Source: Treponema sp.
GTDB lineage: Bacteria > Spirochaetota > Spirochaetia > Treponematales > Treponemataceae
NCBI GenBank assembly: GCA_012799545.1
Contig: JAAZLA010000059.1
Location: 1 to 37,789, forward strand
Reading direction: 5' to 3'
DNA length: 37,789 nucleotides
Positions 21,254-35,669 of this stretch are shown here, one piece after another. Each line of letters opens with the position of its first letter. Within the stretch, counting starts at the first letter, position 1. Made by a program: the position numbers and the translations under genes. The notes beneath the pieces are model-generated. The model made no database searches. It saw only the letters and a program-made list of their open reading frames with translations, and was not told where the DNA came from.

Positions 21254-22564
21254 TTAATTCATCCCGATTCCCAGCTTTGAAATTAAGGTTTCTTTCAAAG
21301 CCTGTGTCTCACTGTCATCAAGCCCCAATTTTCTTGCCTTATCTAAGTCGTTCATGCTCCTTGTATAATCTTTTAAATGATAATACGAAAGCGCACGTCT
21401 AAAAAAAACAAAGGCTTGAAATTCATTTATCTCCAAGGATTTATCATAATAGTCTATAGCTTTTCTATGATCTTCTAAGACACTATAGACAATACCTACA
21501 TAATAAAAGGATCTAAAATTTGACGCATCAAAACGCACGCTTTCCATAAAGTCGTCAAGCGCATTTTGATACTTATTTTGAGAAAAGTATGCCATACCAC
21601 GATGTTTGTACATAACTGATAAAACAAGCTCGTGTAAAGCAGGTTTACTTTCGATAATAAGCGTGTAAATTTCTATAGCCCTATCTAAATAGCCCTGATT
21701 ATGAGAGTGGATAGCTTCCAAAATCATATCATCGATAGTTCCCTGCACATAGGGCGAAGCTGATTCTAAAGACACTTTTGCCTCAGGAGCTTCAGGCAAA
21801 AGAAAATTTTTGGAAATAGAGTCTGCTTGTTCAAAAAAGGAATCTCGACGATTAAGCAGTTCGTTATTTAATTTATTTTGGTAGTCCCGAATTTCTTGAA
21901 AAATAATATCTGCGAGGCTAAGGCTTGCATTCATAGAAGCGAGTTTTCTACGAAGAGGTAAATCAAAGGGAGAAAACTCGGATTTATATACAAGCTCATG
22001 TTCGACTTCAGCCCAAGCATCTTGCAAGATTGTCCGAATTTGTATTTCACAAACTAAATTTTTTGGCAATTCTATTTTATCGGATCGAAACTCTTCGGGA
22101 ATATGTATGAGAATGTGAATAGACTCATAGCCGAATTCGCGAAAGGTTCGCTCTGTCCCCTTTTTTTCAATTTCTATAATAGAAAATTCGTTTGTAATTT
22201 GCTTTTCGACTTTTTGCAAGTCTTCTAAAAAAGGACAAATAATTCGTATGCCGATTAAATCGCTCAAAGCAGGTAGTTTTTCATCTTTTAAAGCATAGGG
22301 TTTAATGCGCATCAATTTTTTATAATAGCTGGTAAAACCCTTTACACGTGTTTTATACGTGGGTTTTGAGGGTAGATTAATTGTTTTTTTCAATTTATGT
22401 TCAATACTAAATAAAATTGCAGTTAAAATAGGCATGAATACATCATATGATTCTTTTAATGCAACCTTATCTGGAAAAAATGAATTTTCAACGTCACTCA
22501 TAATAATACTATAGCATGAAAAAATCACAATGGCAATAAAAAAAGACCCAAACAATGTCAGCAT
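21254..22564 (-). CDS. RelA/SpoT-domain (small alarmone synthetase-like) protein fused to C-terminal TPR repeats
   Basis: Synthetase motifs RVKGFTSYYKKL, SDLIGIRIICPF, GYESIHILIH and EIQIRTILQDAWAEVEHELVYK. The C-terminal 150 aa or so carry TPR-like repeats (AIEIYTLII..., YKHRGMAYFSQNKYQNALDDF, AIDYYDKSLEIN..., FFRRALSYYHLKDYTRSMNDL). The start is uncertain. 22564 gives a hydrophobic N-terminal helix; the ATG at 22501 (MSDVEN) would remove it. Confidence 0.8.
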   Translation of the reverse strand: MLTLFGSFFIAIVIFSCYSIIMSDVENSFFPDKVALKESYDVFMPILTAILFSIEHKLKKTINLPSKPTYKTRVKGFTSYYKKLMRIKPYALKDEKLPALSDLIGIRIICPFLEDLQKVEKQITNEFSIIEIEKKGTERTFREFGYESIHILIHIPEEFRSDKIELPKNLVCEIQIRTILQDAWAEVEHELVYKSEFSPFDLPLRRKLASMNASLSLADIIFQEIRDYQNKLNNELLNRRDSFFEQADSISKNFLLPEAPEAKVSLESASPYVQGTIDDMILEAIHSHNQGYLDRAIEIYTLIIESKPALHELVLSVMYKHRGMAYFSQNKYQNALDDFMESVRFDASNFRSFYYVGIVYSVLEDHRKAIDYYDKSLEINEFQAFVFFRRALSYYHLKDYTRSMNDLDKARKLGLDDSETQALKETLISKLGIGMN

Positions 22565-22601
22565 TGTCTAGGTCTTTATCTATAATATAGTGATAAAAAG
22601 A

Positions 22602-23645
22602 TTATTGTTCTACTTCAAATGATGAGGTAAAAGCTTCTTCTTGTGCCATCTTATCTTTTTCCATAAAGCGAAGCACTTGCTTTTCACCAAAGCGTGACAT
22701 TTCAAAGTTTTGCTTGTCTTTTTCCTTTTTAGTGATAATGCCCCAAAGATCTTCGTCAGCAATGTCTCTTTCAGTTGTTAAAACAGCTTTATCATAGATC
22801 ACTTTAACATCTTTGAAGTAACCGATAAAGTCACCTCCGTCATGCATTGCATCTCGAGTGATTTCAAAACCAGCGAATTTAACAAAAGGTAAACCTCTTG
22901 GATAAATTGGTACAACTCGAATTTCTCTTTGTCGTACTTCAGTTACATAATGAGGATTATTCCAGCGCAATTCTCGCCAGCCATCAAATCCAAGATAACC
23001 CATAAAATAACGTCGTTCTACGTTGTCATTATCTTTAAGAAGTACATAGACACCATGAGGAAAGTTCATACCCATAGTTGTTAGTGCTAATGATTTAATT
23101 GTTCCAACGTTTTTAACAACACCGTAGCCTTCTTCAAATCTTGTTTTACCACTGGCTTTTTCTTCGTCAGTCTGTGGTTGTACATCGCCATTGTCATCTA
23201 CCGTAGCCATTGGTTCGTAGGCAGGTATATCAAATGGTGGTCTTATTTTTGCTTGAGAATTTACCGAGGTTGTTGGGAATAAAATCCGAACACCCATAAC
23301 ATTTTGACCAGCAAAAGGAACTTTCGCTTCCTCTCTTACTGGTGCAGCAACCACTGTTGATGTAGCGATACTTGTTACATTTCGAGCAGAAGAATTCAAC
23401 GATACTTCCCAGTTAGGTAAACTGAGTGAAGTTCTCATAAGAGCCTTCTGTTCATCTGTAAATGTAGCGCCAGCAGCAACACCAAAATCCATTACACTTC
23501 GCCTGTTTTGTGTAGGATTTCCATTCTCGTCAGCAATAATATCTGCATCATAAAGAGTAAAATCAACGATCACAGCTTCTTCAGCGACAAGAAACATCCC
23601 TACGAGCAAAAATGCCATTACAACTAAAATGAAATTTTTTTTCAT
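22602..23645 (-). CDS. flaA: Flagellar filament outer-layer (sheath) protein FlaA
   Basis: Signal peptide MKKNFILVVMAFLLVGMFLVA. The segments DEQKALMRTSLSLPNWEVSLNSSARN, FEEGYGVVKNVG, YFMGYLGFDGWRELRWNNP and GYFKDVKVIYDKAVL match my recollection of treponemal FlaA. About 347 aa. AAGGAG RBS. Confidence 0.85.
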   Translation of the reverse strand: MKKNFILVVMAFLLVGMFLVAEEAVIVDFTLYDADIIADENGNPTQNRRSVMDFGVAAGATFTDEQKALMRTSLSLPNWEVSLNSSARNVTSIATSTVVAAPVREEAKVPFAGQNVMGVRILFPTTSVNSQAKIRPPFDIPAYEPMATVDDNGDVQPQTDEEKASGKTRFEEGYGVVKNVGTIKSLALTTMGMNFPHGVYVLLKDNDNVERRYFMGYLGFDGWRELRWNNPHYVTEVRQREIRVVPIYPRGLPFVKFAGFEITRDAMHDGGDFIGYFKDVKVIYDKAVLTTERDIADEDLWGIITKKEKDKQNFEMSRFGEKQVLRFMEKDKMAQEEAFTSSFEVEQ

Positions 23646-23688: not shown

Positions 23689-23716
23689 AGTATACGCATG
23701 AAAAACGTTTTGTCAA
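23689..23716 (-). promoter_or_regulatory. sigma70-like promoter candidate for flaA (TTGACA-N16-TATACT) with upstream A-tract
   Basis: On the minus strand, TTGACA is the complement of 23711-23716 and TATACT the complement of 23689-23694, with a 16-nt spacer. An A8 tract lies just upstream of the -35 (complement of 23720-23727). Confidence 0.55.
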
Positions 23717-23725
23717 TTCTTTTTT

Positions 23726-24187
23726 TTAAAAACCTTCATTTTCATAAATACTGCTACCATCAATGTATATCTGTATTATATCTATTTTCCTCACATTTCG
23801 AAAAATATTTTTTCTAAATAATGCAGCACCTTCTTTATTTGTTGATGCTTCATCGAGTATATTCAATGCTTCAGAAGAAAGATTCACATATAAGGTTTTC
23901 CCAACAAGAGCTGTGCTTAAACTCCTCGTATTGCGTGGAAACAAAGGGAGGGATCTATCGGCCATAGGACCAAGCAAAAGCTCATCAATAAGTAAGTTTA
24001 GTCTATCCCCTTTTTTTACCTTTGGTAGATATCGTGATTCTACTTGTAATACACCCGTATCTCTATGTTGAAAATAAAAAACAAAACGTGCTTTTTTATT
24101 GAATATAAAAAAAAGACTAAGTGAAATAATGCACAAGCTAGCAAGAATAATGAGGGCTACTATTTTTTTTTTCTCTATATGTATCAC
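23726..24187 (-). CDS. Membrane-anchored GerMN-like (germane) domain protein
   Basis: N-terminal TM helix IVALIILASLCIISLSLFFIF. The pattern LLIDELLLGP...LFPRNT...ALVGKTLYVNLSSE resembles the GerM N-terminal domain signature. The GTG start follows directly after the amidase TAA. Confidence 0.5.
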   Translation of the reverse strand: MIHIEKKKIVALIILASLCIISLSLFFIFNKKARFVFYFQHRDTGVLQVESRYLPKVKKGDRLNLLIDELLLGPMADRSLPLFPRNTRSLSTALVGKTLYVNLSSEALNILDEASTNKEGAALFRKNIFRNVRKIDIIQIYIDGSSIYENEGF

Positions 24188-25225
24188 TTATTGACCACCT
24201 GTAAAACCTCGTGATTGTTCAAAATGCGTAATAAATGCACTGATTCCAGTATATATTGCTTGGGCAGCTTTACGCAAGTAGTTTTTATCTGCCAAGAGTG
24301 TCGCTTCTTCTTTATTGGTAACAAAGCCTAATTCAACCAAAACACTTGGCATATGGGCATGTTTGACAACAAACCATTCTTCCTCTTTTATACCTCGCTT
24401 TGGAGAAAGACTTCCAATTTCAGCGTCGAGAGAATCAAGAATAAATTTTGCTATCAAAATGCTCTCTGTAGTATACTCTTCTTCGAGCATAGAGTTAAGT
24501 ATGGGAAGCAAATCCTTATCAACTTCTGTTTCTGTAAGTATTGAACGACGATAACCGGGGCTTAAATACCACACTTCAAAACCTTTTGCCTTGGTGTCGA
24601 ATGCCGCATTTGCATGAATAGATATGTAGATTATCGCTTCATTTTCTGCCAAATTGATATTGTTTGCTTTTTCAACGCGCTCTTCGAGTGTTAAATATAC
24701 ATCCGTAGATCGTGTTAAAAGCACTTGTTTATCGGGATAGCGATTTTTCAATAATAAAAAAAGCTCAAGCGAGGTTGCCAATGCGACGTCTTTTTCTTGT
24801 ACTGTCGTTTTTTTACCACCAATAAGATGCGTTCCAATGGCTCCTGGGTCCTTACCTCCGTGCCCTGGATCGATGAGTATTGCGCCTACTTTGAAAAAAT
24901 CGAGTTCAGCTTCGCTTTGAAAAAGCTCGATTGCAAGTGAAATCACGTCTTTTGATACAAAGACTTGGTTATCCTTTCGAATAGGAGGCTCGATTATATG
25001 AAATTCTCTAAAATCAAGTAATGCGATGCTACTGTCTATGCTAATACTTAGGTGGTGTCCGTTTTTTTGTATAATCGCATGTGCAGCAAGTGGATCCCAA
25101 TACAAAAAAGCACCGAGTTTTGTCACCTCATCTTGTAAATTGACATAGTCTGCGGGAACTTTTGCAAAAAGGCAAAAAAAGGAGCTCAGAATAAAAAAGA
25201 TTATGATACTGTGTATTTTTTTCAT
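24188..25225 (-). CDS. N-acetylmuramoyl-L-alanine amidase (Amidase_3 family) with N-terminal stalk/targeting domain
   Basis: Zn-ligand contexts IDPGHGGKDPGA, ISIHANA and VELGFVTN. Signal peptide MKKIHSIIIFFILSSFFCLFA from the ATG at 25225. The listed 25240 start is a TTG overlapping the upstream stop. Confidence 0.85.
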   Translation of the reverse strand: MKKIHSIIIFFILSSFFCLFAKVPADYVNLQDEVTKLGAFLYWDPLAAHAIIQKNGHHLSISIDSSIALLDFREFHIIEPPIRKDNQVFVSKDVISLAIELFQSEAELDFFKVGAILIDPGHGGKDPGAIGTHLIGGKKTTVQEKDVALATSLELFLLLKNRYPDKQVLLTRSTDVYLTLEERVEKANNINLAENEAIIYISIHANAAFDTKAKGFEVWYLSPGYRRSILTETEVDKDLLPILNSMLEEEYTTESILIAKFILDSLDAEIGSLSPKRGIKEEEWFVVKHAHMPSVLVELGFVTNKEEATLLADKNYLRKAAQAIYTGISAFITHFEQSRGFTGGQ

Positions 25226-25236
25226 TTCTGTCGATT

Positions 25237-26877
25237 TCAACCGCTACTTCCTTTTTTTTGCAGTATATACAATAAACCTTGTGAACCGCCGCGCAAGAAT
25301 GCCTGCCAAAAATCATAGGCGGGAATCGTGTAGTTTTCTAATCTTATGTTATTTTTAATAAAAAAAGCAAGATCATCTAAGCTTTTTTCTATTGTTTTAT
25401 AATTCCAATCAAAAACGGAGCGATTTTGAAAAAGCGGTGGTAGAAAATCTTCTGCTTCTTCAGCTGTCTTAGATTCTATTGCATTGATAAAAGAAAGAAC
25501 AGAGATCGGTTTTTCATTTTTCTGTTTTTCCAAGAAGGCTGCAGCCTCATCTCCTAGAGCTGCAAAGGCTGAGGGAGGAAACTTTGTAAGAAAATCTTCT
25601 CTTAAAAAAGCTTCTGTCTCAGCATTATTTTCTTCAAGCTCAAGAAAAAGACACGCAACAGCGTTTTCAGCTGCCTCAATCGCATCTTTTCGTGTTTTTG
25701 CTTGCGTTAAGACATTGCCCGCTTTTTCGACATTATTTGTCGGAAAAACAAGTTCGTCATGTACTTTTGCGCGAGGAAAAACAGCTTTTACATTTTCTAT
25801 GCCTTGGGCTTCTTCCATGCCATGAATTGCCTTTAATCTTCCAGGAATAGAAATCCAAGCTCGCTCAGCACTGTGCAATCGAGGTAAAAGTTGTTTTTCC
25901 ATCGTTTGAAGTGGTATTTTTTCACCTAAGGCAAGTTGGATAGCTAGTTTAGTCAGCGATATTCCAGAGGCATAGGGATAGGTCCAGCCTGACATATAGC
26001 CGCCTGAAAGCCGTGCAGCAATTTCGCCTATTTTACAACCTTCTTTGGTGTATTTTATATCGCCCTTGGCTGCTCCATGGCTTAAACCCAATGCTTTTAC
26101 GCCTTTTTTAAAGACTGAGATTATTTCCTCTTGTTTTTCTCGGCTCAAGGCTGTTGGCATAGTATGCCCCATCTCAACAAAATACGGTGGATAAAAAATA
26201 TGTCGGTCCGCAAAGCCGGTAATGTATACTTCGCCCTCATACACAAGCGCATCGATAGAAAACTCATCGCCTTCCATGTATTCTTCAAGAATTGCACGCT
26301 TTGACTTAGAGTATAACAAGGCTTGCTCGACTGCGGTATATAATGCTTCTTTGTTTTGCACGAGGCGACAGCCACGAGAACCCATATTGTCGACGGGTTT
26401 TACCACAAGGGGATAGGCTATGGGAAGGGAGGCCTGTATCTGAGAGAAGTTTTGGCTAAAATCTCTTTCATGTACTTCTAAAAAGGCAGGCGACGGGACG
26501 AGGGCTTTTTGAAAGCAGCTTCTCATGCGTATTTTATCGCTTGCGTTTCGGGCCGACTCTGGACTATGTCCTGGGAGAGCGCAAGCTTCGGCAATTTTTG
26601 CAACAGCAAAAGAAAAATCTGTCGCCGCGGTAAAAACTGCATCTAAACCACCTCTTTGTTTTTGCTCCAAGGCAAAATCTACGAGTGCATCGCTATCCTT
26701 TAAGTCAATCGACACAAAGACATCGGCAAGATGAGCTGCAGGAGCGCGTGGGTTGCCATCGCTTAGGATAACACGCAACCCCAGCTCTCGCGCCGCTTCT
26801 ATCGCAGGTATTTGCATAAAACCTGCACCAAGTATGAAAATAGTTTTTTTTGTTTTAGTATCTGCTTGCATTCCCAT
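25237..26877 (-). CDS. ATP-grasp carboxylate-amine ligase (L-amino-acid-ligase-like) with about 140-aa C-terminal extension
   Basis: N-terminal Rossmann-like KKTIFILGAGFMQIPAIEAAREL. ATP-grasp core YPLVVKPVDNMGSRGCRLV ... ILEEYMEGDEFSIDAL ... GEIAARLSGG. The ATG at 26877 (MGMQAD) lies 22 nt after the upstream stop; the listed 26979 start overlaps the upstream gene by 80 nt. Confidence 0.75.
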   Translation of the reverse strand: MGMQADTKTKKTIFILGAGFMQIPAIEAARELGLRVILSDGNPRAPAAHLADVFVSIDLKDSDALVDFALEQKQRGGLDAVFTAATDFSFAVAKIAEACALPGHSPESARNASDKIRMRSCFQKALVPSPAFLEVHERDFSQNFSQIQASLPIAYPLVVKPVDNMGSRGCRLVQNKEALYTAVEQALLYSKSKRAILEEYMEGDEFSIDALVYEGEVYITGFADRHIFYPPYFVEMGHTMPTALSREKQEEIISVFKKGVKALGLSHGAAKGDIKYTKEGCKIGEIAARLSGGYMSGWTYPYASGISLTKLAIQLALGEKIPLQTMEKQLLPRLHSAERAWISIPGRLKAIHGMEEAQGIENVKAVFPRAKVHDELVFPTNNVEKAGNVLTQAKTRKDAIEAAENAVACLFLELEENNAETEAFLREDFLTKFPPSAFAALGDEAAAFLEKQKNEKPISVLSFINAIESKTAEEAEDFLPPLFQNRSVFDWNYKTIEKSLDDLAFFIKNNIRLENYTIPAYDFWQAFLRGGSQGLLYILQKKGSSG

Positions 26878-26899
26878 AATTTTGAAGTATCCACATACA

Positions 26900-29575
26900 C
26901 TATAAAATATTACGCTTTTTGATACAATAGACCTCAAAGGTATCTGATAAAACAAGTTTATTTGCAATGCATACAGCAAGCCATTTCAAAACACCACCTC
27001 TTCTATACCAAGTAGCTAAAAAACCGAGAAATCTATGCGATTTTATACGTTCGAGGTGGCTTTCTTCTATTTTTATTTTTTGTACTTTAAATCCATAGGC
27101 TTGGAGGATTTTTTTTGCAGCTTTTTTATGCCAAATACTAAAATGATCCAAGGGAGATTGTTCAAAAAAATCTTTTTTAGATAGTTTCATGGAAATACCG
27201 CGGCCATTTGGTGTAGAAAAAGCAAAAACTCCACCAATCACTAAGAGGGCATTTACTTTTTTTAGCACAGCATCGAGGTTTTCAAAATGCTCGATGACAA
27301 ACCACATCGTAAGGCAGCCAAATTGTGATGGAAAAAGGCTTTCGGCCTCTATCTTCGAGGAGAAAAATTGAGGAAAGGGCGCAGAAATAGCCGGAAATCC
27401 CAGTTTTTCCTTGACATAGGCAACAGCTTTCTTGGAAATATCGCTACCAAAAGGTGAAAAACCAGCATCTTGGGCGGCAGATAAAAAAGGACCGTAGGCA
27501 CAACCTATATCGAGAATGCTTTTTTGAGGCGGCTTGAGCTCTTGTATTTCTTTTAAGCGTGCAAGTCCTCTTGCTTTTATATGTGAAAAATCTTCTAGAT
27601 AGGTTTTGCCATATTGTTTTTTATAATCATCAAAAAAATACGCTTCATTGTACTGAGTTTTATCTTTTGAAAGCCATGAAGGATAATAGAGCGAACAGGA
27701 TGCACATTTTCGAATTGTTTTACTTGGACATCGTTCAAGAACTTTATCTGCTCTTTTTTTTCTCAGTTTTTTTTCTACTGGAGATAGTTTTCTTTGAAAA
27801 TCTTCTTGACAAAGAGGACAAGAAAGAGTCCTTCCTTCTAGAAAATCTAAAAGAAAGACTGAAAGTGTCGATTTTTCTTGATTTAAAAGTGTAAAATCCA
27901 TTTCTAAAAGTGGCTGAAAAACAGCTGAAAGGTTTTTCTCCCCTAGACCATCGACTTTTTTTCCAAAAACTATTTTTTGAATGATTTTTTCAAAGCTGCT
28001 TTGGTTTAGCTTGTTTTTGGGAATATTGTAAAATCCATATTTTTTTGCCAGTTTTTCATGGATTTTGCTCGTTCCCAGTAAAATAAGCTCAGAGCCCGAC
28101 GCAAGGGCTTCAAAAGCGGTCAGCCCATAATGCGTTATAACAATATCATAATTGCATAATCGCTCTTTTAAGCTCGGTATGGGATTTTCTGGCAAAAGAA
28201 GCTCGATTTCAGAAGGAAGTTGCAGCGCCTTCACAGCCTTTTCTAAAAGATTTTTTGCCTTTAGAGCAAGTCGCCCTGGGTCTTCACCACCGAGGCTAAT
28301 TAAAAAGCGAATTGTTTTTTCTTGTTTTTCTGCATCGGTTTTATTATCACCCTGTGTATTCTCCGTCTTTTTTTGTATCTTCTCAGTTTTTTTTTGACAA
28401 GAGCGAAAATCTAAGAGTCGAATATCCATAAGGTTATTTTTTTTATTTTTAAGTGAAGGAATCGTATCGAGGACGTAGCTTACCGCTCTTAGATTTTTTT
28501 CTGATGCAGCTTCATCAAGGGCGAGGACTGGTGCGCGTTTTGCCAAGGCTTCTATTTCCTTTTTTTCTGTTCGAAAGGCATCGAGCACAATGAGGCCGGG
28601 TGCAAAGCTGTCAATTGATTCTAAGATTTGGTCTTTAAAAATACGCCCTTCACTCAATGCTATTTCTAAGAGTTTTTTTACTTCAGTGGAAGCATGGGGG
28701 GGTACAAAAAAGCTTGCGTCGAGTTCTTCTGCCACCATAAGTGCGCGGCGAAAATGTCCTGTGCCAAAGCCTTTTTTTACCTGCGCTATGTACAAAAGAG
28801 GCTTTCGAAATGCTTCTGAGTTTAAAACATCGAGAATTTCTCTTGCAGAAAAGACTTTTTTTTCGCAAGGAGAAGAAGCGAGGAATTTTTTCCCTGTTTC
28901 AAGGCGTTTTTTTTCTAGATGACGATAGAGCTTCAAAGCCCTTCGATAATCTTCTGCGGTGTCGATGGTAGTGCGCAATGTAGGAGCATAAAAAGAAGGC
29001 GGTGCATCGATAAAATGACATGAAAAATACGTTTTATGATTGTACAAGGCAGGTCCTACATGCTCGCATTCATAGGCATCGCAGCCTCTTTTCCAAGCCT
29101 TCAAAAGAGAAGTTGCTTTTAAAAGCTCTACTCCAGAGCCATGAGGCATTCCCGTAAAGGTAAGATAATCGCAGGCGATGCCCTGAGAGAGAATAGCATC
29201 CTTTTTTGCAAGGAGTTCAGGTATCGCTTCATAAAACAAAAAAGGATTGTCACCAGTTGCGCGGACTATGTAGAGATTTTCAAGGCTTTTTTCTGCCTCT
29301 TTTTCTATATGCTTTTCTATATATTCCTCTATCAAAAGACAAAAACGTTCCAAGACATTATCTGCGCTACCAGAAAAAATTTCATAGCCATGATTTTTTG
29401 CGATGGGTAAAAAAGCCTCATAGGAATAAGCATCTGTTGCCAAAAAATGAGCATCCGCTGGTATTTCTTTTAAGGCCAAAAGTGTATGAGCGATACTTGG
29501 CAGATTTCCGATGGACAAGAGAGCCTTGTGTGGGAGACGGCTAGATTGCAGACGCGCTTGCACAATAATAATCAT
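26900..29575 (-). CDS. Three-module fusion: SpsF/PseF-type cytidylyltransferase + PseG-like GT-B module + Zn-ribbon/class I SAM methyltransferase
   Basis: N-terminus MIIIVQARLQSSRLPHKAL is the acylneuraminate/SpsF cytidylyltransferase signature. The middle segment LLYIAQVKKGFGTGHFRRALMVAEEL plus ITHYGLTAFEALASGSELILL resembles PseG/MurG-type GT-B. The C-terminus has CPLCQ...CASCS followed by SAM motif I ILDIGCAYGPFL and a later LVIGGVFAFSTP. The ATG at 29575 shares one base with the upstream TGA (TGATG); the listed 29590 is TTG. Confidence 0.7.
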   Translation of the reverse strand: MIIIVQARLQSSRLPHKALLSIGNLPSIAHTLLALKEIPADAHFLATDAYSYEAFLPIAKNHGYEIFSGSADNVLERFCLLIEEYIEKHIEKEAEKSLENLYIVRATGDNPFLFYEAIPELLAKKDAILSQGIACDYLTFTGMPHGSGVELLKATSLLKAWKRGCDAYECEHVGPALYNHKTYFSCHFIDAPPSFYAPTLRTTIDTAEDYRRALKLYRHLEKKRLETGKKFLASSPCEKKVFSAREILDVLNSEAFRKPLLYIAQVKKGFGTGHFRRALMVAEELDASFFVPPHASTEVKKLLEIALSEGRIFKDQILESIDSFAPGLIVLDAFRTEKKEIEALAKRAPVLALDEAASEKNLRAVSYVLDTIPSLKNKKNNLMDIRLLDFRSCQKKTEKIQKKTENTQGDNKTDAEKQEKTIRFLISLGGEDPGRLALKAKNLLEKAVKALQLPSEIELLLPENPIPSLKERLCNYDIVITHYGLTAFEALASGSELILLGTSKIHEKLAKKYGFYNIPKNKLNQSSFEKIIQKIVFGKKVDGLGEKNLSAVFQPLLEMDFTLLNQEKSTLSVFLLDFLEGRTLSCPLCQEDFQRKLSPVEKKLRKKRADKVLERCPSKTIRKCASCSLYYPSWLSKDKTQYNEAYFFDDYKKQYGKTYLEDFSHIKARGLARLKEIQELKPPQKSILDIGCAYGPFLSAAQDAGFSPFGSDISKKAVAYVKEKLGFPAISAPFPQFFSSKIEAESLFPSQFGCLTMWFVIEHFENLDAVLKKVNALLVIGGVFAFSTPNGRGISMKLSKKDFFEQSPLDHFSIWHKKAAKKILQAYGFKVQKIKIEESHLERIKSHRFLGFLATWYRRGGVLKWLAVCIANKLVLSDTFEVYCIKKRNIL

Positions 29576-30588
29576 CAATAGCTTTTCCAAAAAGCGAGGA
29601 TGGCGTTAAAATCAAGCTTGTATTTATCCGAATGACTCTCAACCCATTTTTTTGCCTCTCTAAATGCTGGAATTGCCTTGAAAAAATGCCCTGAATGAAT
29701 GGCATAGGGTAAAAAAGCTTTTTTTGGGTAGGATATTTTTCCCTTATCGCAGCGGGGAATAATATTTTTCAAATAAAACCGATAATAGGAGTCATCGATG
29801 CTCATATCCTCAGTCGCTCTTTCACCTTCATAGCTGAGACGAAAGGCAGGAGACATAAAGAGTGCATAGCCCCAAAGCCATGAACGTAAACCAAATTCGA
29901 CATTTTGCCAGTAGGGAGAAGAGAGTTCGCTGTCAAAACCGCCCATTTCAAAAAAATGTTTTTTATTGTAAATCCCCATAAAATCATAGGGATAAAGACT
30001 GATAGAATGTTCATACAAGAGTTTTGATAATGTAACAGTAAAATACGCGTCATCAATGCTTGGACTTGCTTTTACTGGTAAAACTTGAGAACTTGCAGAA
30101 TACAGCGAAGGCAAAAGACAAAGGGGTTTTCGCGGTATTTCTATCTTACATTCAGTATTGTCGCTTGTTGTAAAATCGTCCAAGGGTTTTTCAAAAAGCG
30201 ATAGCTTTGATAAGACAAAGTCGCTTAAAATATTTTCACGAATTTTTATATCGTCCCAAACAACAAAGACTGTCTCACCTTCAGTTTCCTTCATGCCAAT
30301 ATTTATCATCTGCCCGATATTTATTTCTTCTTGGGGAATAATAAAGCGCACGCAGGGAAAACGCCTTGAAAGCTCATCGAGGGCATAGTTTTTAGAAAAT
30401 TTTTCGACGCTTACAATCGATTGGAAGCCGCTTTTCATCAAGGCATCGAGAATTTGTGGCTTAAAGTGGGAGCCAGATCGAGAAAGCAATAAAACAGAAA
30501 TGGGTTTTGAGGCATAAGGATTTTTTTCACTTCCGCCTATTATTGTTCGTGCTATCTCTGTATTAAAAATTATAGGTGTAGTACTCAT
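29575..30588 (-). CDS. GT-A (family-2-like) glycosyltransferase-like protein
   Basis: ISVLLLSRSG (compare VSVIIPTYN), INIGMKETEGETVFVVWDD (compare N.G...A.GE.I.FLDDD) and MGGFDSELSSPYWQNVEFGLRSWLWGY (compare GGFDE.F...ED.DL..R). The ATG at 30588 overlaps the upstream gene by 26 nt; the listed GTG at 30600 is an alternative. Confidence 0.55.
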   Translation of the reverse strand: MSTTPIIFNTEIARTIIGGSEKNPYASKPISVLLLSRSGSHFKPQILDALMKSGFQSIVSVEKFSKNYALDELSRRFPCVRFIIPQEEINIGQMINIGMKETEGETVFVVWDDIKIRENILSDFVLSKLSLFEKPLDDFTTSDNTECKIEIPRKPLCLLPSLYSASSQVLPVKASPSIDDAYFTVTLSKLLYEHSISLYPYDFMGIYNKKHFFEMGGFDSELSSPYWQNVEFGLRSWLWGYALFMSPAFRLSYEGERATEDMSIDDSYYRFYLKNIIPRCDKGKISYPKKAFLPYAIHSGHFFKAIPAFREAKKWVESHSDKYKLDFNAILAFWKSY

Positions 30589-32215
30589 CACATTTCTCAC
30601 ATATTTTTTGAAGCCTGTTTTCTAAATGTCGACCGTATGCTTCTTTTTTCTTTTGCCATATTGTTTCTATATTGTCGCTAAAAATATTTCCTAAAATATA
30701 CTCTGTTTTTTCATAAGGTACAACAGAATGACAAAGCGGAACAGAACCGTCCAAAAAAATATGCATGTCGCGGCGAAGATGCCAGCAAGGATTTCGCTCA
30801 AGTGGGGCTAAATCGAGGACAGATTTTTCATCAAGGTAGCCTGAAAAACTATTATATTTTTGAATAATCGTTTTATCGGTTTTCTCCCGCCAGTATCGAA
30901 TAAAGGCTTCCAATTCTGCTTCATTTTCTTGTATACGTAAAAATTGCACATATGTAGAATGTGGAAAAGCTTTTTCTAAAAGCATATAGTTTTTTTCTGC
31001 CTGCTCAAGGCTAAAACCTGTACCATGGAGTTTTTCGTATAAGTCAGGACTTCGGGCATCCAAACCAAGTATCCAATACACTGCCTGATATGCAGTTTGT
31101 CTTTGCGGAGATTTTTCTATGATTTGACTTATCGACTGAATAAAATCTTCAGAAATGGAATAAGATGTTGTTTCGATTAAAAGAGAAAGGGAAGGATGTT
31201 TTAAAGTTTCTTCTATAAAAAATAAAAGTTCTGGATGATGCAAGGCTTCTCCCCAAAGCGAAAGTGAAATAAGGGCATCTTCGGAAAAAGAGAGAATTGC
31301 GTCAAGAATCGCTGTAAAATCTTCTTTTTTCATAAACTGGGCAGAATTGTCATAAAATGCTTCTTGAGGATTTTTTCTAAAACGCCCGAAATGTGCCGTG
31401 GGATAGGGACAAAAAAGACAGGTTCCCGCACATGAACTTGCTATTTGTATAGAATAATAGGCTGGAAGGCTGTGAAGGACAGAAATATCGGTAGAAAGCG
31501 AAAGAATTTTTTCAAAACCAATCTCCGAGACAGAAATTTCTGTTTCTCGAAAGCCTGAATCAATGAGGCGCTTCCAAAGAGATTTTGTTGAAAAAAGATT
31601 GCGTTTTGAATCCACAGAAAATGTGAGGCGCCATGGTCGCATATCTGTATCGCTGATATATGTTTCTATTTCAAAGGCATTGATATCTTTTTTGATAAGA
31701 GAAAATAAAAGATCTCGGCTGATATTTTCTGCTTTTTGATCTCGCTCCACTGTTTCTGCTTCTTTTAATTGCTCTAAACCCAAAAGAAGAGAAACCGCAT
31801 CGATATCTATAATCTCAGGAGCTAAACCAAGGGGAAAGGCCTCGCCAAAGCAATACGAACTTAAAGAATCTTCGTGTAAATCTATGAGCGACTTTGAAAT
31901 ATCTTTTTGCAAAAAGGGAGAATCTGCCCAAGCATAGATAATTGTTTTTGCATTTTTTTCGTCTGCACAGGTAAAAAAAGATTCGAGTAGTTTTTTTTCT
32001 GTCCATTTTTCTTTGTATACAAAGGAGGTGTTTTCAGTTTTTTCTAAAAAAGAAAAAGAAGATTCTGGTCTATCGCTGAGAATGCAAATAGCTTCCACAG
32101 CATCGAGATTTTTTGCCCATTCATAACTTAATACAATGGCAGATTTTTCATTAAAAACTTTTTCAAAGGCTCCTTCGTGCAAGCCTATTGCAGATAAAAT
32201 ACAGATACGTTTCAT
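30563..32215 (-). CDS. Radical-SAM protein with SPASM/twitch-like C-terminus and degenerate nucleotidyltransferase-like N-domain (resembles the family I recall being named spiro-SPASM protein)
   Basis: CAGTCLFC (CxxxCxxC) at mid-protein. The C-terminus has C-x12-G-x4-C (CWHLRRDMHIFLDGSVPLC), then CEKC. The N-terminal 150 aa or so (MKRICILSAIGL...IIYAWADSPFL...GLAPEIID) follows an NTP-transferase fold pattern. The ATG at 32215 is preferred over the listed TTG at 32248. Confidence 0.7.
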   Translation of the reverse strand: MKRICILSAIGLHEGAFEKVFNEKSAIVLSYEWAKNLDAVEAICILSDRPESSFSFLEKTENTSFVYKEKWTEKKLLESFFTCADEKNAKTIIYAWADSPFLQKDISKSLIDLHEDSLSSYCFGEAFPLGLAPEIIDIDAVSLLLGLEQLKEAETVERDQKAENISRDLLFSLIKKDINAFEIETYISDTDMRPWRLTFSVDSKRNLFSTKSLWKRLIDSGFRETEISVSEIGFEKILSLSTDISVLHSLPAYYSIQIASSCAGTCLFCPYPTAHFGRFRKNPQEAFYDNSAQFMKKEDFTAILDAILSFSEDALISLSLWGEALHHPELLFFIEETLKHPSLSLLIETTSYSISEDFIQSISQIIEKSPQRQTAYQAVYWILGLDARSPDLYEKLHGTGFSLEQAEKNYMLLEKAFPHSTYVQFLRIQENEAELEAFIRYWREKTDKTIIQKYNSFSGYLDEKSVLDLAPLERNPCWHLRRDMHIFLDGSVPLCHSVVPYEKTEYILGNIFSDNIETIWQKKKEAYGRHLENRLQKICEKCDEYYTYNF

Positions 32216-32240
32216 ACTTCTTTTATCGGCAGAATTTCGC

Positions 32241-32269
32241 TTGCACAACAGAGCCCTTCAGTGTAAACT
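32241..32269 (+). promoter_or_regulatory. sigma70-like promoter candidate for xseA (TTGCAC-N17-TAAACT)
   Basis: TTGCAC at 32241-32246, a 17-nt spacer, TAAACT at 32264-32269. The first ATG (32278) is only 8 nt past the -10, so either the mRNA is near-leaderless or the ATG at 32299 is used. Confidence 0.3.
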
Positions 32270-32277
32270 AAAAAAAG

Positions 32278-33531
32278 ATGAACCAAGAAAGTCTTAGTAT
32301 GAATGCAGTTTCCCTCAACAAAAAAGAAAATGCCTACACGGTATCTGAGCTAACAAGCTATATAAAAGAACTTTTGGAAGCGAGTTTTTTTCAAATAGTC
32401 GTAGAAGGCGAAATTTCAAACTACAAGCCTTCCAGTACCGGTCATGTTTATTTTACTCTAAAAGACGAAAAAGCTGCTATTTCTGCAGTTATTTTTAAAG
32501 GGAAAATGCGCAACATTGCCTTTTCACCAAAAGACGGAAACAAGGTGCGCTTAAAGGGCTCGCTTTCTGTTTACGCCCTTCGAGGAAACTATCAAATCAT
32601 CGTTGACTCAATGGAAGAACTTGGCTCTGGCAATATTCTTGAAATGCTCGAAATGCGCAAACAAAAGCTCGCCAAAGAGGGTTTGTTTGACGAAGATCGA
32701 AAAAAACCAATTCCCTTTTTCCCAAAACGCATAGGCATTGTAACAAGCCCTACTGGAGCTGCCTTACAAGATATTTTGCAAATTTTACAAAGACGAAATC
32801 CCAAAATCTCCGTCGTCATACTCCCCTGCCCTGTGCAAGGAAGCGAGGCTGCCGCAGAGATAGCAAAAAAAATCACAATCGCAAATACTCATACGCTTTG
32901 CGACGTACTCATCGTGGGGCGTGGTGGCGGCTCCCTCGAAGATCTTCTTCCTTTTTCTGAAGAAATAGTTGTACGTGCCATAGCTGCCTCAGAAATTCCT
33001 GTAATATCTGCTGTGGGGCATGAAATAGACTGGGCTTTAAGCGATTTTGCAGCGGACAAAAGAGCGCCGACACCCTCAGCGGCAGCCGAGCTTGCAAGTC
33101 CCCCTTTGGAAGACATTCTAGAACTTCTCGAGAAGTTTAAGGAAAACTTTGAACGAAGCATGAGCTATAAGCTCGACTATGCAAAAGCTCTTATGAGGTC
33201 ATTTACAGCAGAGGGCTTAGAAATGCAGTTTAGGACGATTGAACAGCCCTTATTGCAGCGATTTGACGACGCAAAAGAAGACTTGCTCCTTGCGATGCAG
33301 TATCACGTACAAGAAAAAAAACAAGCCCTGAACATGATACAAACGCAATTACAAGCCCTTAACCCACTTTCTGTTTTAGAGCGCGGTTTTGCAATTGTGC
33401 GATTTAAAGAAAATAAAAAAACAATTCTCGATGCCCAAGACCTAAAACTGGGCGATGAAGTAGAAATCCTACCTTTTAAAGGTTTAGCGGAAGCGAAAAT
33501 AAGTCAGATACAAAAGCGGGAGGTCAGATAA
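32278..33531 (+). CDS. xseA: Exodeoxyribonuclease VII large subunit
   Basis: N-terminal OB-fold signature YTVSELTSYIKELLE...VVEGEISNYKPSSTGHVYFTLKD. Catalytic-domain motifs IGIVTSPTGAALQDIL, VGRGGGSLEDL, SAVGHEIDW...DFAAD.RAPTPSAAAE. 417 aa. Confidence 0.93.
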   Translation: MNQESLSMNAVSLNKKENAYTVSELTSYIKELLEASFFQIVVEGEISNYKPSSTGHVYFTLKDEKAAISAVIFKGKMRNIAFSPKDGNKVRLKGSLSVYALRGNYQIIVDSMEELGSGNILEMLEMRKQKLAKEGLFDEDRKKPIPFFPKRIGIVTSPTGAALQDILQILQRRNPKISVVILPCPVQGSEAAAEIAKKITIANTHTLCDVLIVGRGGGSLEDLLPFSEEIVVRAIAASEIPVISAVGHEIDWALSDFAADKRAPTPSAAAELASPPLEDILELLEKFKENFERSMSYKLDYAKALMRSFTAEGLEMQFRTIEQPLLQRFDDAKEDLLLAMQYHVQEKKQALNMIQTQLQALNPLSVLERGFAIVRFKENKKTILDAQDLKLGDEVEILPFKGLAEAKISQIQKREVR

Positions 33532-33764
33532 TGGCTCAATTTGAAAAACAACTTGAACGGCTCGAAGAAATAAGCGCATCTATAAAAAAATCGGATATTA
33601 GCATGGAAGAAGCCCTCAAGTTTTTTGAAGAAGGTATTCAACTTGCAAAAAAAATGGAAAAAGATTTAGAAAAAATTGAAACAAAGATACAAGTGCTTAT
33701 GAATTCACCTGTTAGGGTCGAGGACAAACCTGAACTCGATTTATTTAGTCTTTCAGCCAATTAA
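33531..33764 (+). CDS. xseB: Exodeoxyribonuclease VII small subunit
   Basis: 77 aa. FEKQLERLEEISASIKKSDISMEEALKFFEEGIQLAKK matches the XseB helical-hairpin signature. GGAGG RBS and TAATG overlap with xseA. Confidence 0.9.
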   Translation: MAQFEKQLERLEEISASIKKSDISMEEALKFFEEGIQLAKKMEKDLEKIETKIQVLMNSPVRVEDKPELDLFSLSAN

Positions 33765-33776
33765 CAAAGATAGAAA

Positions 33777-35669
33777 ATGGCAATTTTCAGCGCCCAAAGA
33801 GGCATAGAAAAAAAAATACAAAAACTCAAGCCTGAGCTTGCACGAAAAATAGCTGCAGGGGAAGTTATAGACAGACCCCATGCAGTTGTTCGCGAGCTCC
33901 TCGATAACGCAATTGACTCAGGTGCAAACAATATTCGGCTTGAAATTTTTTCAGGTGGCATAGAAAAAATAATCGTAAAAGATAATGGAATCGGGCTTTC
34001 AAAAGAAAATTTAGCTCTCTGCGCCCAGCCCCATGCGACAAGTAAGATTGGCTCCGAACTAGACTTGCTCAAAATTCAAAGCATGGGCTTTCGCGGAGAG
34101 GCACTCTCATCAATTGCTGCAGTAAGCCGTTTAAAAATCCAATCCAAACAAAGGCAGGCAAAAGAAAATCACGCGTGGTGCTTAGAAAGTGAAGTGGGCT
34201 TAGAAGATAGAATTGAACCCTGCCTTATTCACGAAGGAAGCATTGTCGAAGCGCAAGGCCTTTTTGCAAATTTCCCTGCGAGGCGTCAATTCCTGAAACG
34301 CCCAGCAACAGAGGCAGCACTTTGCCGACAGGTTTTTATAGAAAAAAGCCTCCCCTTTATCGATATACATTTTAGTTTTTTTAGCGATGGAGAAAAAAAA
34401 CTCGACTTTCCCGAGGCACAAAGCTACAAAGAACGCTTTGCAAGCGCTCTTGGCTTAGAAAAAAGCCTTGCACTTTTGCATGAATTAGAAGGACAGGATA
34501 CAGCCGAACTGCCAGAATGGCGCTTTAAAATCGTCATAGGGGACCCAAGCCTTGCTCGAACAGATAGAAAGCAAATACATATTTTTACAAATAATCGAAA
34601 AATTGACGAATACAGCTTTGTGCAAGCAATAGAATATGGTTGCCAAGGCTATTTCCCCAATGGGCTCAAACCCATTGCAGCGCTTTTTTTAGAAATTTCT
34701 CCTGCCCTTGTTGATTTCAATATTCACCCTGCAAAAAAAGAAGCGCGCTTTAAAGATTCAACTGCGATACATCGTGCGATTCACACCAGCATCAACCGTT
34801 TTTTTCGCTCTTTTTCTTTTAAAGCAATCCAAGAAGATAGCCTAGAAAGAGAAGAAACCAAACATCAATATGAATTTTCAAATGATTTTTCTATACCGAC
34901 AAGGGACCAACATTTTTCAAAGCCTGCCTACAGGGGAAAAGAAAGCCATTTTTCTCCCTCTTTTCTAGGTCCGAGACCTAGCAAAGATTTTGAAGGGGAA
35001 AATCGAAGCAGCTATGCTCAGGCTTCTCAGCCTATAAAAAGAAGCCACATAGATAGCTCTTTTCAAAACGAGCAGGAATTTAACAGGAGCGCCACAAAGA
35101 AGAATGGTCTTGAGGAAAAAGCAGCGGCTTCTTTTCGTTATTTTGGCAGCTATGCATCCCTTTTTCTAATTGCCGAGAAAAATGAAAAACTCTATATCAT
35201 CGATCAACATGCAGCCCACGAGCGTATTTTATTTAACCAGTTTATGCAAAAAAAAGCACAAAGGCAAAGCCTGCTCATTCCACAGCTTTTTACGACAAAG
35301 GACAAAAACGAAGACTCCTATCTTGAATCAATACAAGACGAATTACAGGAGCAAGGTTTTCAGATAGAGAAAGTCGCCGAGGGAAAATGGGAGATTCGAG
35401 AAATTCATGAACTCTGGGAAGGAGACTTGGAAGGGCTCTTTAGCGAAATCTTGGAAAATAAAACAGAGCCACGCGATCTTTTGCGAAAAATCGCAGAAAA
35501 TTACGCCTGCAAAAAAGCAATAAAGGACGGAAGCTATCTCGACGATGCAAGCGCTATTGCCCTCATCACAGAAAGTTTTGCCTTAGATGATCCACATTGC
35601 CCCCATGGGCGCCCTATATGGACCATCATCAGCAAAGAAGAGCTTTTTTCACGCGTTAAACGTAGCTAA
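33777..35669 (+). CDS. mutL: DNA mismatch repair protein MutL (endonuclease-type)
   Basis: GHKL ATPase N-terminus IAAGEVIDRPHAVVRELLDNAIDSGA, DNGIGL, GFRGEAL. The C-terminal endonuclease motif DQHAAHERILF and CPHGRP are present. Confidence 0.95.
   Translation: MAIFSAQRGIEKKIQKLKPELARKIAAGEVIDRPHAVVRELLDNAIDSGANNIRLEIFSGGIEKIIVKDNGIGLSKENLALCAQPHATSKIGSELDLLKIQSMGFRGEALSSIAAVSRLKIQSKQRQAKENHAWCLESEVGLEDRIEPCLIHEGSIVEAQGLFANFPARRQFLKRPATEAALCRQVFIEKSLPFIDIHFSFFSDGEKKLDFPEAQSYKERFASALGLEKSLALLHELEGQDTAELPEWRFKIVIGDPSLARTDRKQIHIFTNNRKIDEYSFVQAIEYGCQGYFPNGLKPIAALFLEISPALVDFNIHPAKKEARFKDSTAIHRAIHTSINRFFRSFSFKAIQEDSLEREETKHQYEFSNDFSIPTRDQHFSKPAYRGKESHFSPSFLGPRPSKDFEGENRSSYAQASQPIKRSHIDSSFQNEQEFNRSATKKNGLEEKAAASFRYFGSYASLFLIAEKNEKLYIIDQHAAHERILFNQFMQKKAQRQSLLIPQLFTTKDKNEDSYLESIQDELQEQGFQIEKVAEGKWEIREIHELWEGDLEGLFSEILENKTEPRDLLRKIAENYACKKAIKDGSYLDDASAIALITESFALDDPHCPHGRPIWTIISKEELFSRVKRS

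Follow-up and report, generated by a model that had tools for sequence, protein, structure and literature searches.

What could a radical S-adenosylmethionine (SAM) protein, a glycosyltransferase-like protein, a cytidylyltransferase fusion, an amino-acid-ligase-type ATP-grasp enzyme, a peptidoglycan amidase and a GerMN-like protein have in common, that their genes stand head to tail directly upstream of the flagellar sheath gene flaA? This question is raised by a locus of Treponema sp. (assembly GCA_012799545.1, contig JAAZLA010000059.1, positions 1 to 37,789 of the forward strand). We analyzed this whole stretch of 37,789 nucleotides, called the window in the following, as a follow-up to an earlier note on the same DNA, and number the six genes g1 to g6 from 5′ to 3′. 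The block probably comprises two functionally separate modules, g1-g4 and g5-g6. We tentatively propose that g1-g4 tailor a nucleotide-activated sugar, with a nonulosonic product and a flagellin-type acceptor as the favored version, next to an amidase pair that serves cell separation.

Exact protein matches assign the window to an uncultured lineage of the Treponemataceae that is common in anaerobic digesters. Calling of open reading frames (ORFs) on the window recovered the six minus-strand genes at the coordinates that the earlier note had listed, and its five junction distances proved exact. Genes g1 and g2 overlap by 26 nt and g2 and g3 by 1 nt (TGATG), g3 and g4 are 22 nt apart, g4 and g5 are 11 nt apart, and the GTG of g6 follows the TAA of g5 without any gap. 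The domain calls were likewise borne out by hidden Markov model searches, AlphaFold2 models searched with Foldseek and profile comparison, g2 being GT-A-like by fold and without a Pfam match. Within the dual-coding overlap of g1 and g2 (30563..30588, minus strand) the g2 start codon lies inside the g1 C-terminal motif CDEYYTYNF, as read from the sequence, and both the C terminus of g1 and the first methionine of g2 are near-invariant across orthologues.

A scan of species-representative genomes returned at least 497 loci with a relative of g1, the spiro-SPASM protein, and the best 80 of them (L001-L080) were used for synteny. The proteins of these best 80 loci are only 32-41% identical. In essentially every locus that is long enough, xseA on the opposite strand is followed by g1, g2, g3, g4, g5, g6, flaA and relA/spoT. 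Collinearity extends to Salinispira (Spirochaetales) and, within the Treponematales, to about 50-75 distant genomes; T. socranskii, T. brennaborense and Salinispira pacifica are among the carriers of the operon. Of 76 loci, 75 have a g1/g2 overlap of exactly 26 nt, and the median gaps at the other junctions between g1 and g6 range from -7 to +12 nt. Judged by these comparisons, the arrangement is conserved far beyond chance. Because the same order recurs in Salinispira pacifica and two other distant genomes, where g3 is split into two genes, it should be older than the split between Treponematales and Spirochaetales. These Salinispira-type genomes carry cheA 3′ of flaA instead of the RelA/SpoT-TPR gene, and one locus (L087) continues with cheW-cheX-cheY. 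Synteny across related genomes had been suggested as a check against a fortuitous juxtaposition, and the order held; together with the tight junctions it supports the operon-like unit that had been predicted. Among the matches listed by the homologue searches, relatives were confined to Treponematales and Spirochaetales and did not reach Borrelia, Leptospira, Brachyspira or T. pallidum.

Within this block, several observations set g1-g4 apart from g5-g6. In one lineage, represented by three independent samples, g3 and g4 are naturally fused to a single protein of 1352 amino acids. In the termite-gut lineages L039, L058 and L063, g1-g2-g3 have been relocated jointly, away from g4-g6 and flaA, and the units that moved, whether g1-g3 or g1-g2, are surrounded by nothing but unrelated housekeeping genes and a phage integrase. 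Furthermore, g1-g4 are predicted to be soluble and have no transmembrane segment, while signal or anchor sequences are present in g5, g6 and FlaA. We regard g1-g4 as one unit because of the g3-g4 fusion, the joint relocation of g1-g3, the dual coding of g1 and g2, the paralogy between the g1 N-domain and g3 described below, and the shared solubility. The pair g5-g6 is considered separate, since it is exported or anchored and is kept with flaA in T. denticola without g1-g4. Two loci look different again: a phage-type integrase gene directly follows g1 (L020, 6043-7098; L034, 5459-6514) and none of g2-g6 is present over the following 10 kb, which suggests that a mobile element interrupted the operon there.

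The T. denticola locus was recovered by way of a published primer on contig ODVE01000336.1 (L091), whose FlaA is identical to T. denticola entries. It consists of amidase, GerMN gene and flaA only, preceded by pgk and a gene for a glyoxalase-like protein of 125 amino acids (L091, 6951-8677). Primer mapping and the contig identify these two genes as TDE1715 (phosphoglycerate kinase) and TDE1716 (glyoxalase-like), and they occupy the place that g1-g4 hold elsewhere. An assignment of TDE1713-1716 to g6-g3 was therefore rejected. Co-transcription of TDE1713-1716 and flaA has been reported on the basis of co-reverse-transcription PCR (Kurniyati et al., 2022; PMC9481697). In view of the identities of TDE1715 and TDE1716, this result covers amidase, GerMN gene and flaA, and not g1-g4. 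A similar arrangement, an amidase and a small downstream gene directly upstream of flaA, is found in Borrelia burgdorferi, whose bb0665-bb0667 are described as a cell-division operon (Yang and Li, 2009, cited in PMC11863449) with BB_0666 listed as Ami. The T. denticola locus differs from the block studied here in that pgk and the glyoxalase-like gene, not g4 and g3, lie upstream of the amidase. The pair g5-g6 thus seems to be tied to flaA, which in Borrelia we take to be bb0668, by ancient gene order rather than by chemistry shared with g1-g4.

Three domains are fused in g3 (26900..29575, minus strand). The first (domain a, amino acids 1-244; 28844..29575) is an SpsF-type cytidylyltransferase with 95.9 bits to CTP_transf_3. 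Its signature QARxxSxRLPxK is intact and is kept in at least 93% of orthologues, and its nearest structure is 6oew, an SpsF-like cytidylyltransferase of Leptospira (E 4e-9). The second (domain b, amino acids ~255-520; 28016..28813) is a PseG-like domain of the GT-B type with the motifs GxGTGHxRRC, GGEDP and THYGxTAFEA. TIGR03590 (PseG) was the top family for all 30 orthologues tested, with a best E of 2e-12 and every score under the cutoff. A PDB search with the single sequence of this domain gave no match; the domain profile matches 3hbm, the PseG of C. jejuni, by way of the GxGHxxR loop (E 6e-5). By these comparisons domain b is a homologue of PseG and not an equivalog. The third domain (domain c, 27056..27820) joins a ribbon of four cysteines (C586, C589, C624 and C627, 95-100% conserved) to a SAM-dependent methyltransferase (Methyltransf_23, 70 bits). 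It is weakly similar to the nucleoside-diphosphate-sugar C-methyltransferases TcaB9 and KijD1 in the SAM domain only (E 2e-5), and g3 has no match to C-methyltransferase Pfam domains. The pairing of SpsF-like and PseG-like domains would point to late steps of a pseudaminic- or legionaminic-acid-type pathway. Among known systems the late enzymes of these pathways come closest, with the PseF-PseG fusion of H. pylori (HP0326, NeuA/FlmD) and the sps operon of B. subtilis as examples.

The neighboring gene g4 (25237..26877, minus strand) encodes an ATP-grasp protein of the L-amino-acid-ligase type, with 66.2 bits to ATP-grasp_4 (cutoff 27) and 51.4 bits to LAL_C2 (cutoff 29.4). No other product of the block is as well conserved: 114 of its positions reach at least 93%. 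Its match to 3vot (E 1e-23) and its domain pair place it with the L-amino-acid ligases such as BL00235 and BacD and with the ATP-grasp ligases that build peptidoglycan branches. Unlike these, g4 carries a C-terminal extension of 120 amino acids that is specific to the orthologues, forms one protein with g3 in one lineage, and counts among its relatives proteins with a hydroxy-acid dehydrogenase domain. The latter, 42-46% identical to g4 and found in metagenome-assembled genomes of Spirochaetota (P0330, P0331, P0333, P0357, P0364 and P0370; locus L081, 10001-12262), bear a flavin mononucleotide (FMN)-dependent alpha-hydroxy-acid dehydrogenase domain at their C terminus. The g4 extension was considered as a relic of this domain (FMN_dh) and the idea was rejected, there being no similarity.

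The first gene, g1 (30563..32215, minus strand), belongs to the spiro-SPASM family TIGR04321, a model that the earlier note had suggested for a search. The match has 495.5 bits (cutoff 250) and aligns residues 6-550 with positions 4-510 of the 510-position model. Pfam SPASM is matched with 39.3 bits (cutoff 21.5), and Pfam Radical_SAM with 24.2 bits, under its cutoff of 29.5. The family is catalogued in NCBIfam, and our literature search found no paper on spiro-SPASM. The AlphaFold2 model (predicted local distance difference test score, pLDDT, 89) falls into two halves. Its N-terminal half (amino acids 1-235) adopts a degenerate cytidylyltransferase fold, with 6oew as the top PDB match (TM 0.71-0.73), followed by IspD, TarI, KdsB and NeuA. 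HHalign aligned this domain with the cytidylyltransferase domain of g3 at a probability of 96.6% (E 7e-10), which at the profile level identifies the two as paralogues. The alignment begins past the nucleotide-binding signature QARxxSxRLPxK, and since this signature is missing from g1, its N-domain is likely to bind rather than to catalyze.

The C-terminal half of g1 has a radical-SAM/SPASM fold, for which Foldseek returned CteB, BtrN, anSME, BlsE and DesII. Window g1 carries the CxxxCxxC motif (C262, C266 and C269; codons at 31409..31432, minus strand), and this motif together with the fold matches to BtrN, CteB and anSME places it in the radical SAM superfamily. At the level of sequence profiles the sole solved relative is BtrN (E 1.7e-10), a radical-SAM dehydrogenase with an aminocyclitol substrate. 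Only four cysteines are conserved in the C-terminal part (C477, C495, C539 and C542), and the seven-cysteine SPASM pattern CX9-15GX4C...CX2CX5CX3C...C is absent. As four cysteines suffice for one auxiliary cluster, the region is described as twitch-like and not as a full SPASM domain. In its profile and fold matches and in this single auxiliary-cluster-type set, g1 resembles BtrN, DesII and BlsE, radical-SAM enzymes with a twitch or SPASM domain that oxidize, deaminate or decarboxylate sugars and nucleoside-sugars. It differs from them in its degenerate cytidylyltransferase domain, in its membership of a spirochete-only family, and in that about one third of its lineages have lost the cysteines of the SAM cluster.

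This loss deserves attention. Among 81 spiro-SPASM proteins (80 orthologues and window g1), 26 have no CxxxCxxC at all. The cysteine-less forms retain the WGE motif, E348, D386, Y393, Q424, R427 and the auxiliary-cluster cysteines, and g2-g4 are intact in their operons. A marker tree built from g2, domains a and c of g3, and g4 reconstructs an ancestor with cysteines and requires at least four changes of state; most cysteine-less proteins group in a single large clade, to which T. porcinum and T. socranskii belong. The triad loss did not co-vary convincingly with the DxD of g2 or with other partner residues (Fisher p 0.08). Because the cysteine-less proteins and their operons stay otherwise intact, selection seems to maintain g1 for a function that does not require radical-SAM chemistry. 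The protein in the window has the triad, but the radical-SAM chemistry ascribed to the locus is not a universal property of the family.

For g2 (29575..30588, minus strand) no match to Pfam, including Glycos_transf_2, or to NCBIfam was obtained, and nearly all of its 103 detectable homologues are annotated as 'hypothetical'. The AlphaFold2 model (pLDDT 88.6) has a GT-A fold, and polypeptide O-N-acetylgalactosamine (GalNAc) transferases were the top PDB matches in Foldseek (E 1e-10, TMq 0.5-0.62). A comparison of the g2 profile with the PDB by sequence gave nothing significant. A GT2-like core, GGFD...D..R, is invariant among orthologues, and we refer to g2 as a glycosyltransferase without a family.

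Taken together, g1-g4 might form a cytoplasmic, spirochete-specific module that tailors a nucleotide-activated sugar. Here three activities would reside in g3, those of a cytidylyltransferase, of a methyltransferase and of a PseG-like enzyme that hydrolyzes or transfers nucleotide sugars, and g4 would act as a carboxylate-amine ligase that links an acid or amino-acid group as an amide. The divergent GT-A transferase g2 would be translationally coupled to g1, whose non-catalytic N-domain would probably bind a substrate linked to cytidine monophosphate (CMP) or cytidine diphosphate, and whose BtrN-type radical-SAM domain would provide an optional tailoring step that was lost in many lineages. 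The product might be a decorated nonulosonic sugar of the pseudaminic or legionaminic type, the core enzymes of which would be encoded elsewhere. We favor a cytoplasmic acceptor, such as flagellin before its export, because no membrane step is encoded in g1-g4. The pair g5-g6 would provide a periplasmic cell-separation amidase and its GerMN partner.

Several lines of background bear on the favored product and acceptor. Spirochete motility relies on glycosylated periplasmic flagella, and g1-g6 adjoin a flagellar filament gene. Nonulosonic-acid synthases are present in both T. pallidum and T. denticola, the PseI of the latter being TDE0960. Spirochete flagellins bear nonulosonic acids, and the flagellin glycan of T. 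denticola contains a nonulosonic acid with a 2-methoxy-4,5,6-trihydroxyhexanoyl group (PMC13439194). We infer that this group corresponds to a 2-O-methylated 3-deoxyhexonate in amide linkage. An amide-linked O-methylated acid needs a methyltransferase and a carboxylate-amine ligase, and this is chemistry that the methyltransferase of g3 and the ATP-grasp protein g4 could supply. The hydroxy-acid dehydrogenase domain fused to some relatives of g4 in the Spirochaetota is also counted in favor of this reading. If flagellin is the acceptor, the g2 fold makes it a candidate for the transferase. Our literature search found no paper that identifies the enzymes for the acyl decoration of the flagellin sugar, or its transferase. 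The operon thus offers four conserved, uncharacterized candidates whose predicted chemistry matches flagellin-sugar decoration and which adjoin the filament gene.

A number of observations weigh against this proposal. Window g3 reaches only 17.8-22.2 bits with TIGR03590, far under the equivalog cutoff of 153.55, and its cytidylyltransferase domain matched no PseF or NeuA equivalog model at E <= 0.01, only CTP_transf_3 and, weakly, KdsB. Unlike the known late enzymes PseF/SpsF and PseG/SpsG, g3 has an additional Zn-ribbon methyltransferase fused to it, and a spiro-SPASM protein, a family-less GT-A protein and an ATP-grasp ligase occur in no described pseudaminic or legionaminic acid cluster. 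As the earlier note had stated, a Pfam scan of the other window ORFs of at least 150 amino acids revealed no PseB/C/H/I, LegB/C/H/I or NeuB-type gene, so that the window does not encode a complete pathway (PseB/C/H/I or LegB/C/H/I plus PseF and PseG). The structure of the flagellin glycan has been solved for only one spirochete, T. denticola, and on the contig recovered from it the flaA locus has no g1-g4; the linkage to flaA goes with the amidase pair and not with g1-g4. The dehydrogenase-fused relatives of g4 sit outside the operon in an unrelated neighborhood. The DxD position of g2 is Asp in only about half of the orthologues. In the window, g2 has Glu at position 231, where 72 of 73 orthologues have Asp, and Tyr at position 241, where 69 of 73 have Glu. 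Since both positions lie within the conserved GT2-like core, the enzyme of this species may be altered or weakened. The housekeeping neighbors xseA, mutL and relA/spoT are syntenic as well, and gene order alone is therefore weak evidence of a shared function. Finally, no paper was found that characterizes g1-g4 or reports experiments on them. Weighing both sides, we give the two-module proposal, with sugar tailoring by g1-g4 and the favored product and acceptor, a probability of roughly 45%.

A more specific version goes further. In it, g1-g4 would be an unrecognized system for protein-glycan tailoring and transfer: the ATP-grasp enzyme would attach an acid or amino-acid group to the amine of a nonulosonic sugar in place of an acetyl-CoA-dependent step, the methyltransferase would O-methylate the added group, and g2 would represent a new class of nonulosonate transferase acting on flagellin or another cytoplasmic protein, in complex with a spiro-SPASM protein that presents the CMP-sugar. 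We consider this version unlikely. If true, a protein-glycan system would be widespread in the Treponematales and also occur in the Spirochaetales. All of the domains come from known superfamilies. In the literature that we searched we met no description of their combination, of the spiro-SPASM architecture or of the family-less GT-A protein, and with no paper found on spiro-SPASM or g1-g4, the earlier view that no characterized pathway has this composition still stands. The spiro-SPASM family now has a defined set of genomic partners, and the repeated loss of its radical-SAM site under continued selection offers an instructive example of how an enzyme can become a partner without catalytic activity.

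Among the alternatives, a role of g1-g4 in the cell wall or envelope survives best, and even this we hold to be improbable. The ATP-grasp protein could, for example, attach the glycine branch to L-ornithine in the precursor of peptidoglycan; a wall-linked glycan would then be the work of the GT-A protein and the MurG-related PseG-like domain, and the link to the amidase would be functional. Treponema and Borrelia peptidoglycan contains Orn-Gly, and in enterococci branch residues are added by other ATP-grasp enzymes, the D-aspartate ligases. Amidase_3 and GerMN genes are part of the operon in nearly all loci, and g4, so highly conserved, has relatives in the Ddl and L-amino-acid-ligase families. 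In Borrelia, bb0665 shares the 'cell division' operon with the amidase, as described in the literature cited above. On the other hand, no membrane-associated step, flippase or polyprenyl-phosphate transferase is encoded, the natural fusion joins g4 to the cytidylyltransferase/PseG-like/methyltransferase protein and not to Mur enzymes, and T. denticola keeps the amidase pair without g4 at this locus. We also found no paper that ties an ATP-grasp enzyme to spirochete peptidoglycan.

The earlier note had envisaged that all six genes make or attach one decorated, nucleotide-activated sugar. The sugar chemistry stands for g1-g4, but amidase and GerMN as further steps of the same pathway do not. That all six products form a single pathway which makes and installs one sugar, the amidase and GerMN protein for instance opening the peptidoglycan for its insertion, is suggested by the tight packing, with 0 nt between g5 and g6 and 11 nt between g4 and g5, and by collinearity in about 50 genomes. 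Still, we regard it as very doubtful: g1-g4 are cytoplasmic and g5-g6 periplasmic, the amidase, GerMN gene and flaA persist without g1-g4 in T. denticola, and g1-g3 occur without the amidase in L039, L058 and L063. Moreover, cell division is what the amidase operon of Borrelia is reported to promote. Recognizing the amidase pair as a separate cell-division module thus corrects a tempting over-reading of the locus.

Equally hard to maintain is a mere inherited juxtaposition, in which unrelated housekeeping genes became neighbors through regional conservation of gene order and operon compaction. In many loci the flanks of the block do share one order of xseA, mutL, relA/spoT-TPR and a DinG-like helicase gene, and the rest of the window is housekeeping as well. 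Against this stand the dual-coding overlap in 75 of 76 loci, the domain fusions within g3 and between g3 and g4, the joint relocation of g1-g3, and the paralogy of the g1 N-domain with the cytidylyltransferase domain of g3. A maturase for a ribosomally synthesized and post-translationally modified peptide, which the other enzymes would decorate, fits the Pfam SPASM match of g1 and the resemblance of its fold to anSME and to CteB, a sactipeptide synthase, yet we reject it as extremely improbable, because gaps of at most 22 nt between g1 and g6 leave no space for a precursor-peptide gene, the best sequence-level PDB match is the aminocyclitol enzyme BtrN, no more than four cysteines are conserved in the C-terminal part, the N-domain is folded like a cytidylyltransferase and not like a peptide-recognition element, and one third of the orthologues are without SAM-cluster cysteines.

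Both proteins of the g5-g6 module carry export features. The product of g5 (24188..25225, minus strand) is an exported N-acetylmuramoyl-L-alanine amidase of the Amidase_3 family (161.4 bits; AmiC/AmiB/CwlD-like) with a Cu_amine_oxidN1-like domain at its N terminus and a signal or anchor sequence. Conservation of H122, E144 and H204 reaches at least 93%, and by family precedent we take them to be the zinc ligands. A hydrophobic N-terminal anchor precedes the GerMN domain of g6 (23726..24187, minus strand; Germane, 32.4 bits, cutoff 23), and g6 adjoins the amidase in all loci, T. denticola included.

Downstream, the sheath gene flaA (22602..23645, minus strand; Pfam FlaA, 265 bits) is separated from g6 by 80 nt. 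This gap contains an AAGGAG ribosome-binding site and the predicted promoter (23689..23716, minus strand), confirmed as a strong internal sigma70-type site TTGACA-16-TATACT with an 11/12 match. Across the loci compared the gap is never shorter than 61 nt, and TTGACAAA...TATA(A/C)T was found in it in at least 35 of 50 loci. An intrinsic-terminator-like hairpin with a 16-bp stem and a T-run lies 3′ of flaA (22542..22577, minus strand). Such sites follow flaA in 36 of 47 loci and lie in the g6-flaA gap in 4 of 47, from which we conclude that flaA is the last gene of the unit. The block does not end upstream of flaA, as had been thought; by these signals a single predicted transcription unit reaches from g1 through flaA, and a second strong promoter lies immediately 5′ of flaA. 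A promoter for g1-g6 is not evident, since a sigma70-like site (at least 9/12) precedes g1 in only 5 of 67 loci. The distance between g1 and the divergent xseA is only 62 nt (32216-32277).

The shorter ATG starts used throughout are favored by the orthologue alignments. With the alternative TTG start of the longest ORF, g4 (25237-26979) would overlap g3 by 80 nt, and longest-ORF starts would lengthen g3 (26900-29590), g2, g1 and g5 by 3-34 codons. The remaining genes of the window have housekeeping functions (RlmN, Mfd, alanine racemase, Rex, Rho, Lnt, the DinG-like helicase, RelA/SpoT-TPR, XseA and MutL). Directly 3′ of flaA, a RelA/SpoT small-alarmone-synthetase domain is fused to tetratricopeptide repeats (TPR; 21254-22564, minus strand), and this gene is syntenic in 37 of the 80 loci. 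Between xseA and mutL lies xseB (about 33531-33777, plus strand), which encodes the exonuclease VII small subunit of 77 amino acids and is called in identical contigs (L095).

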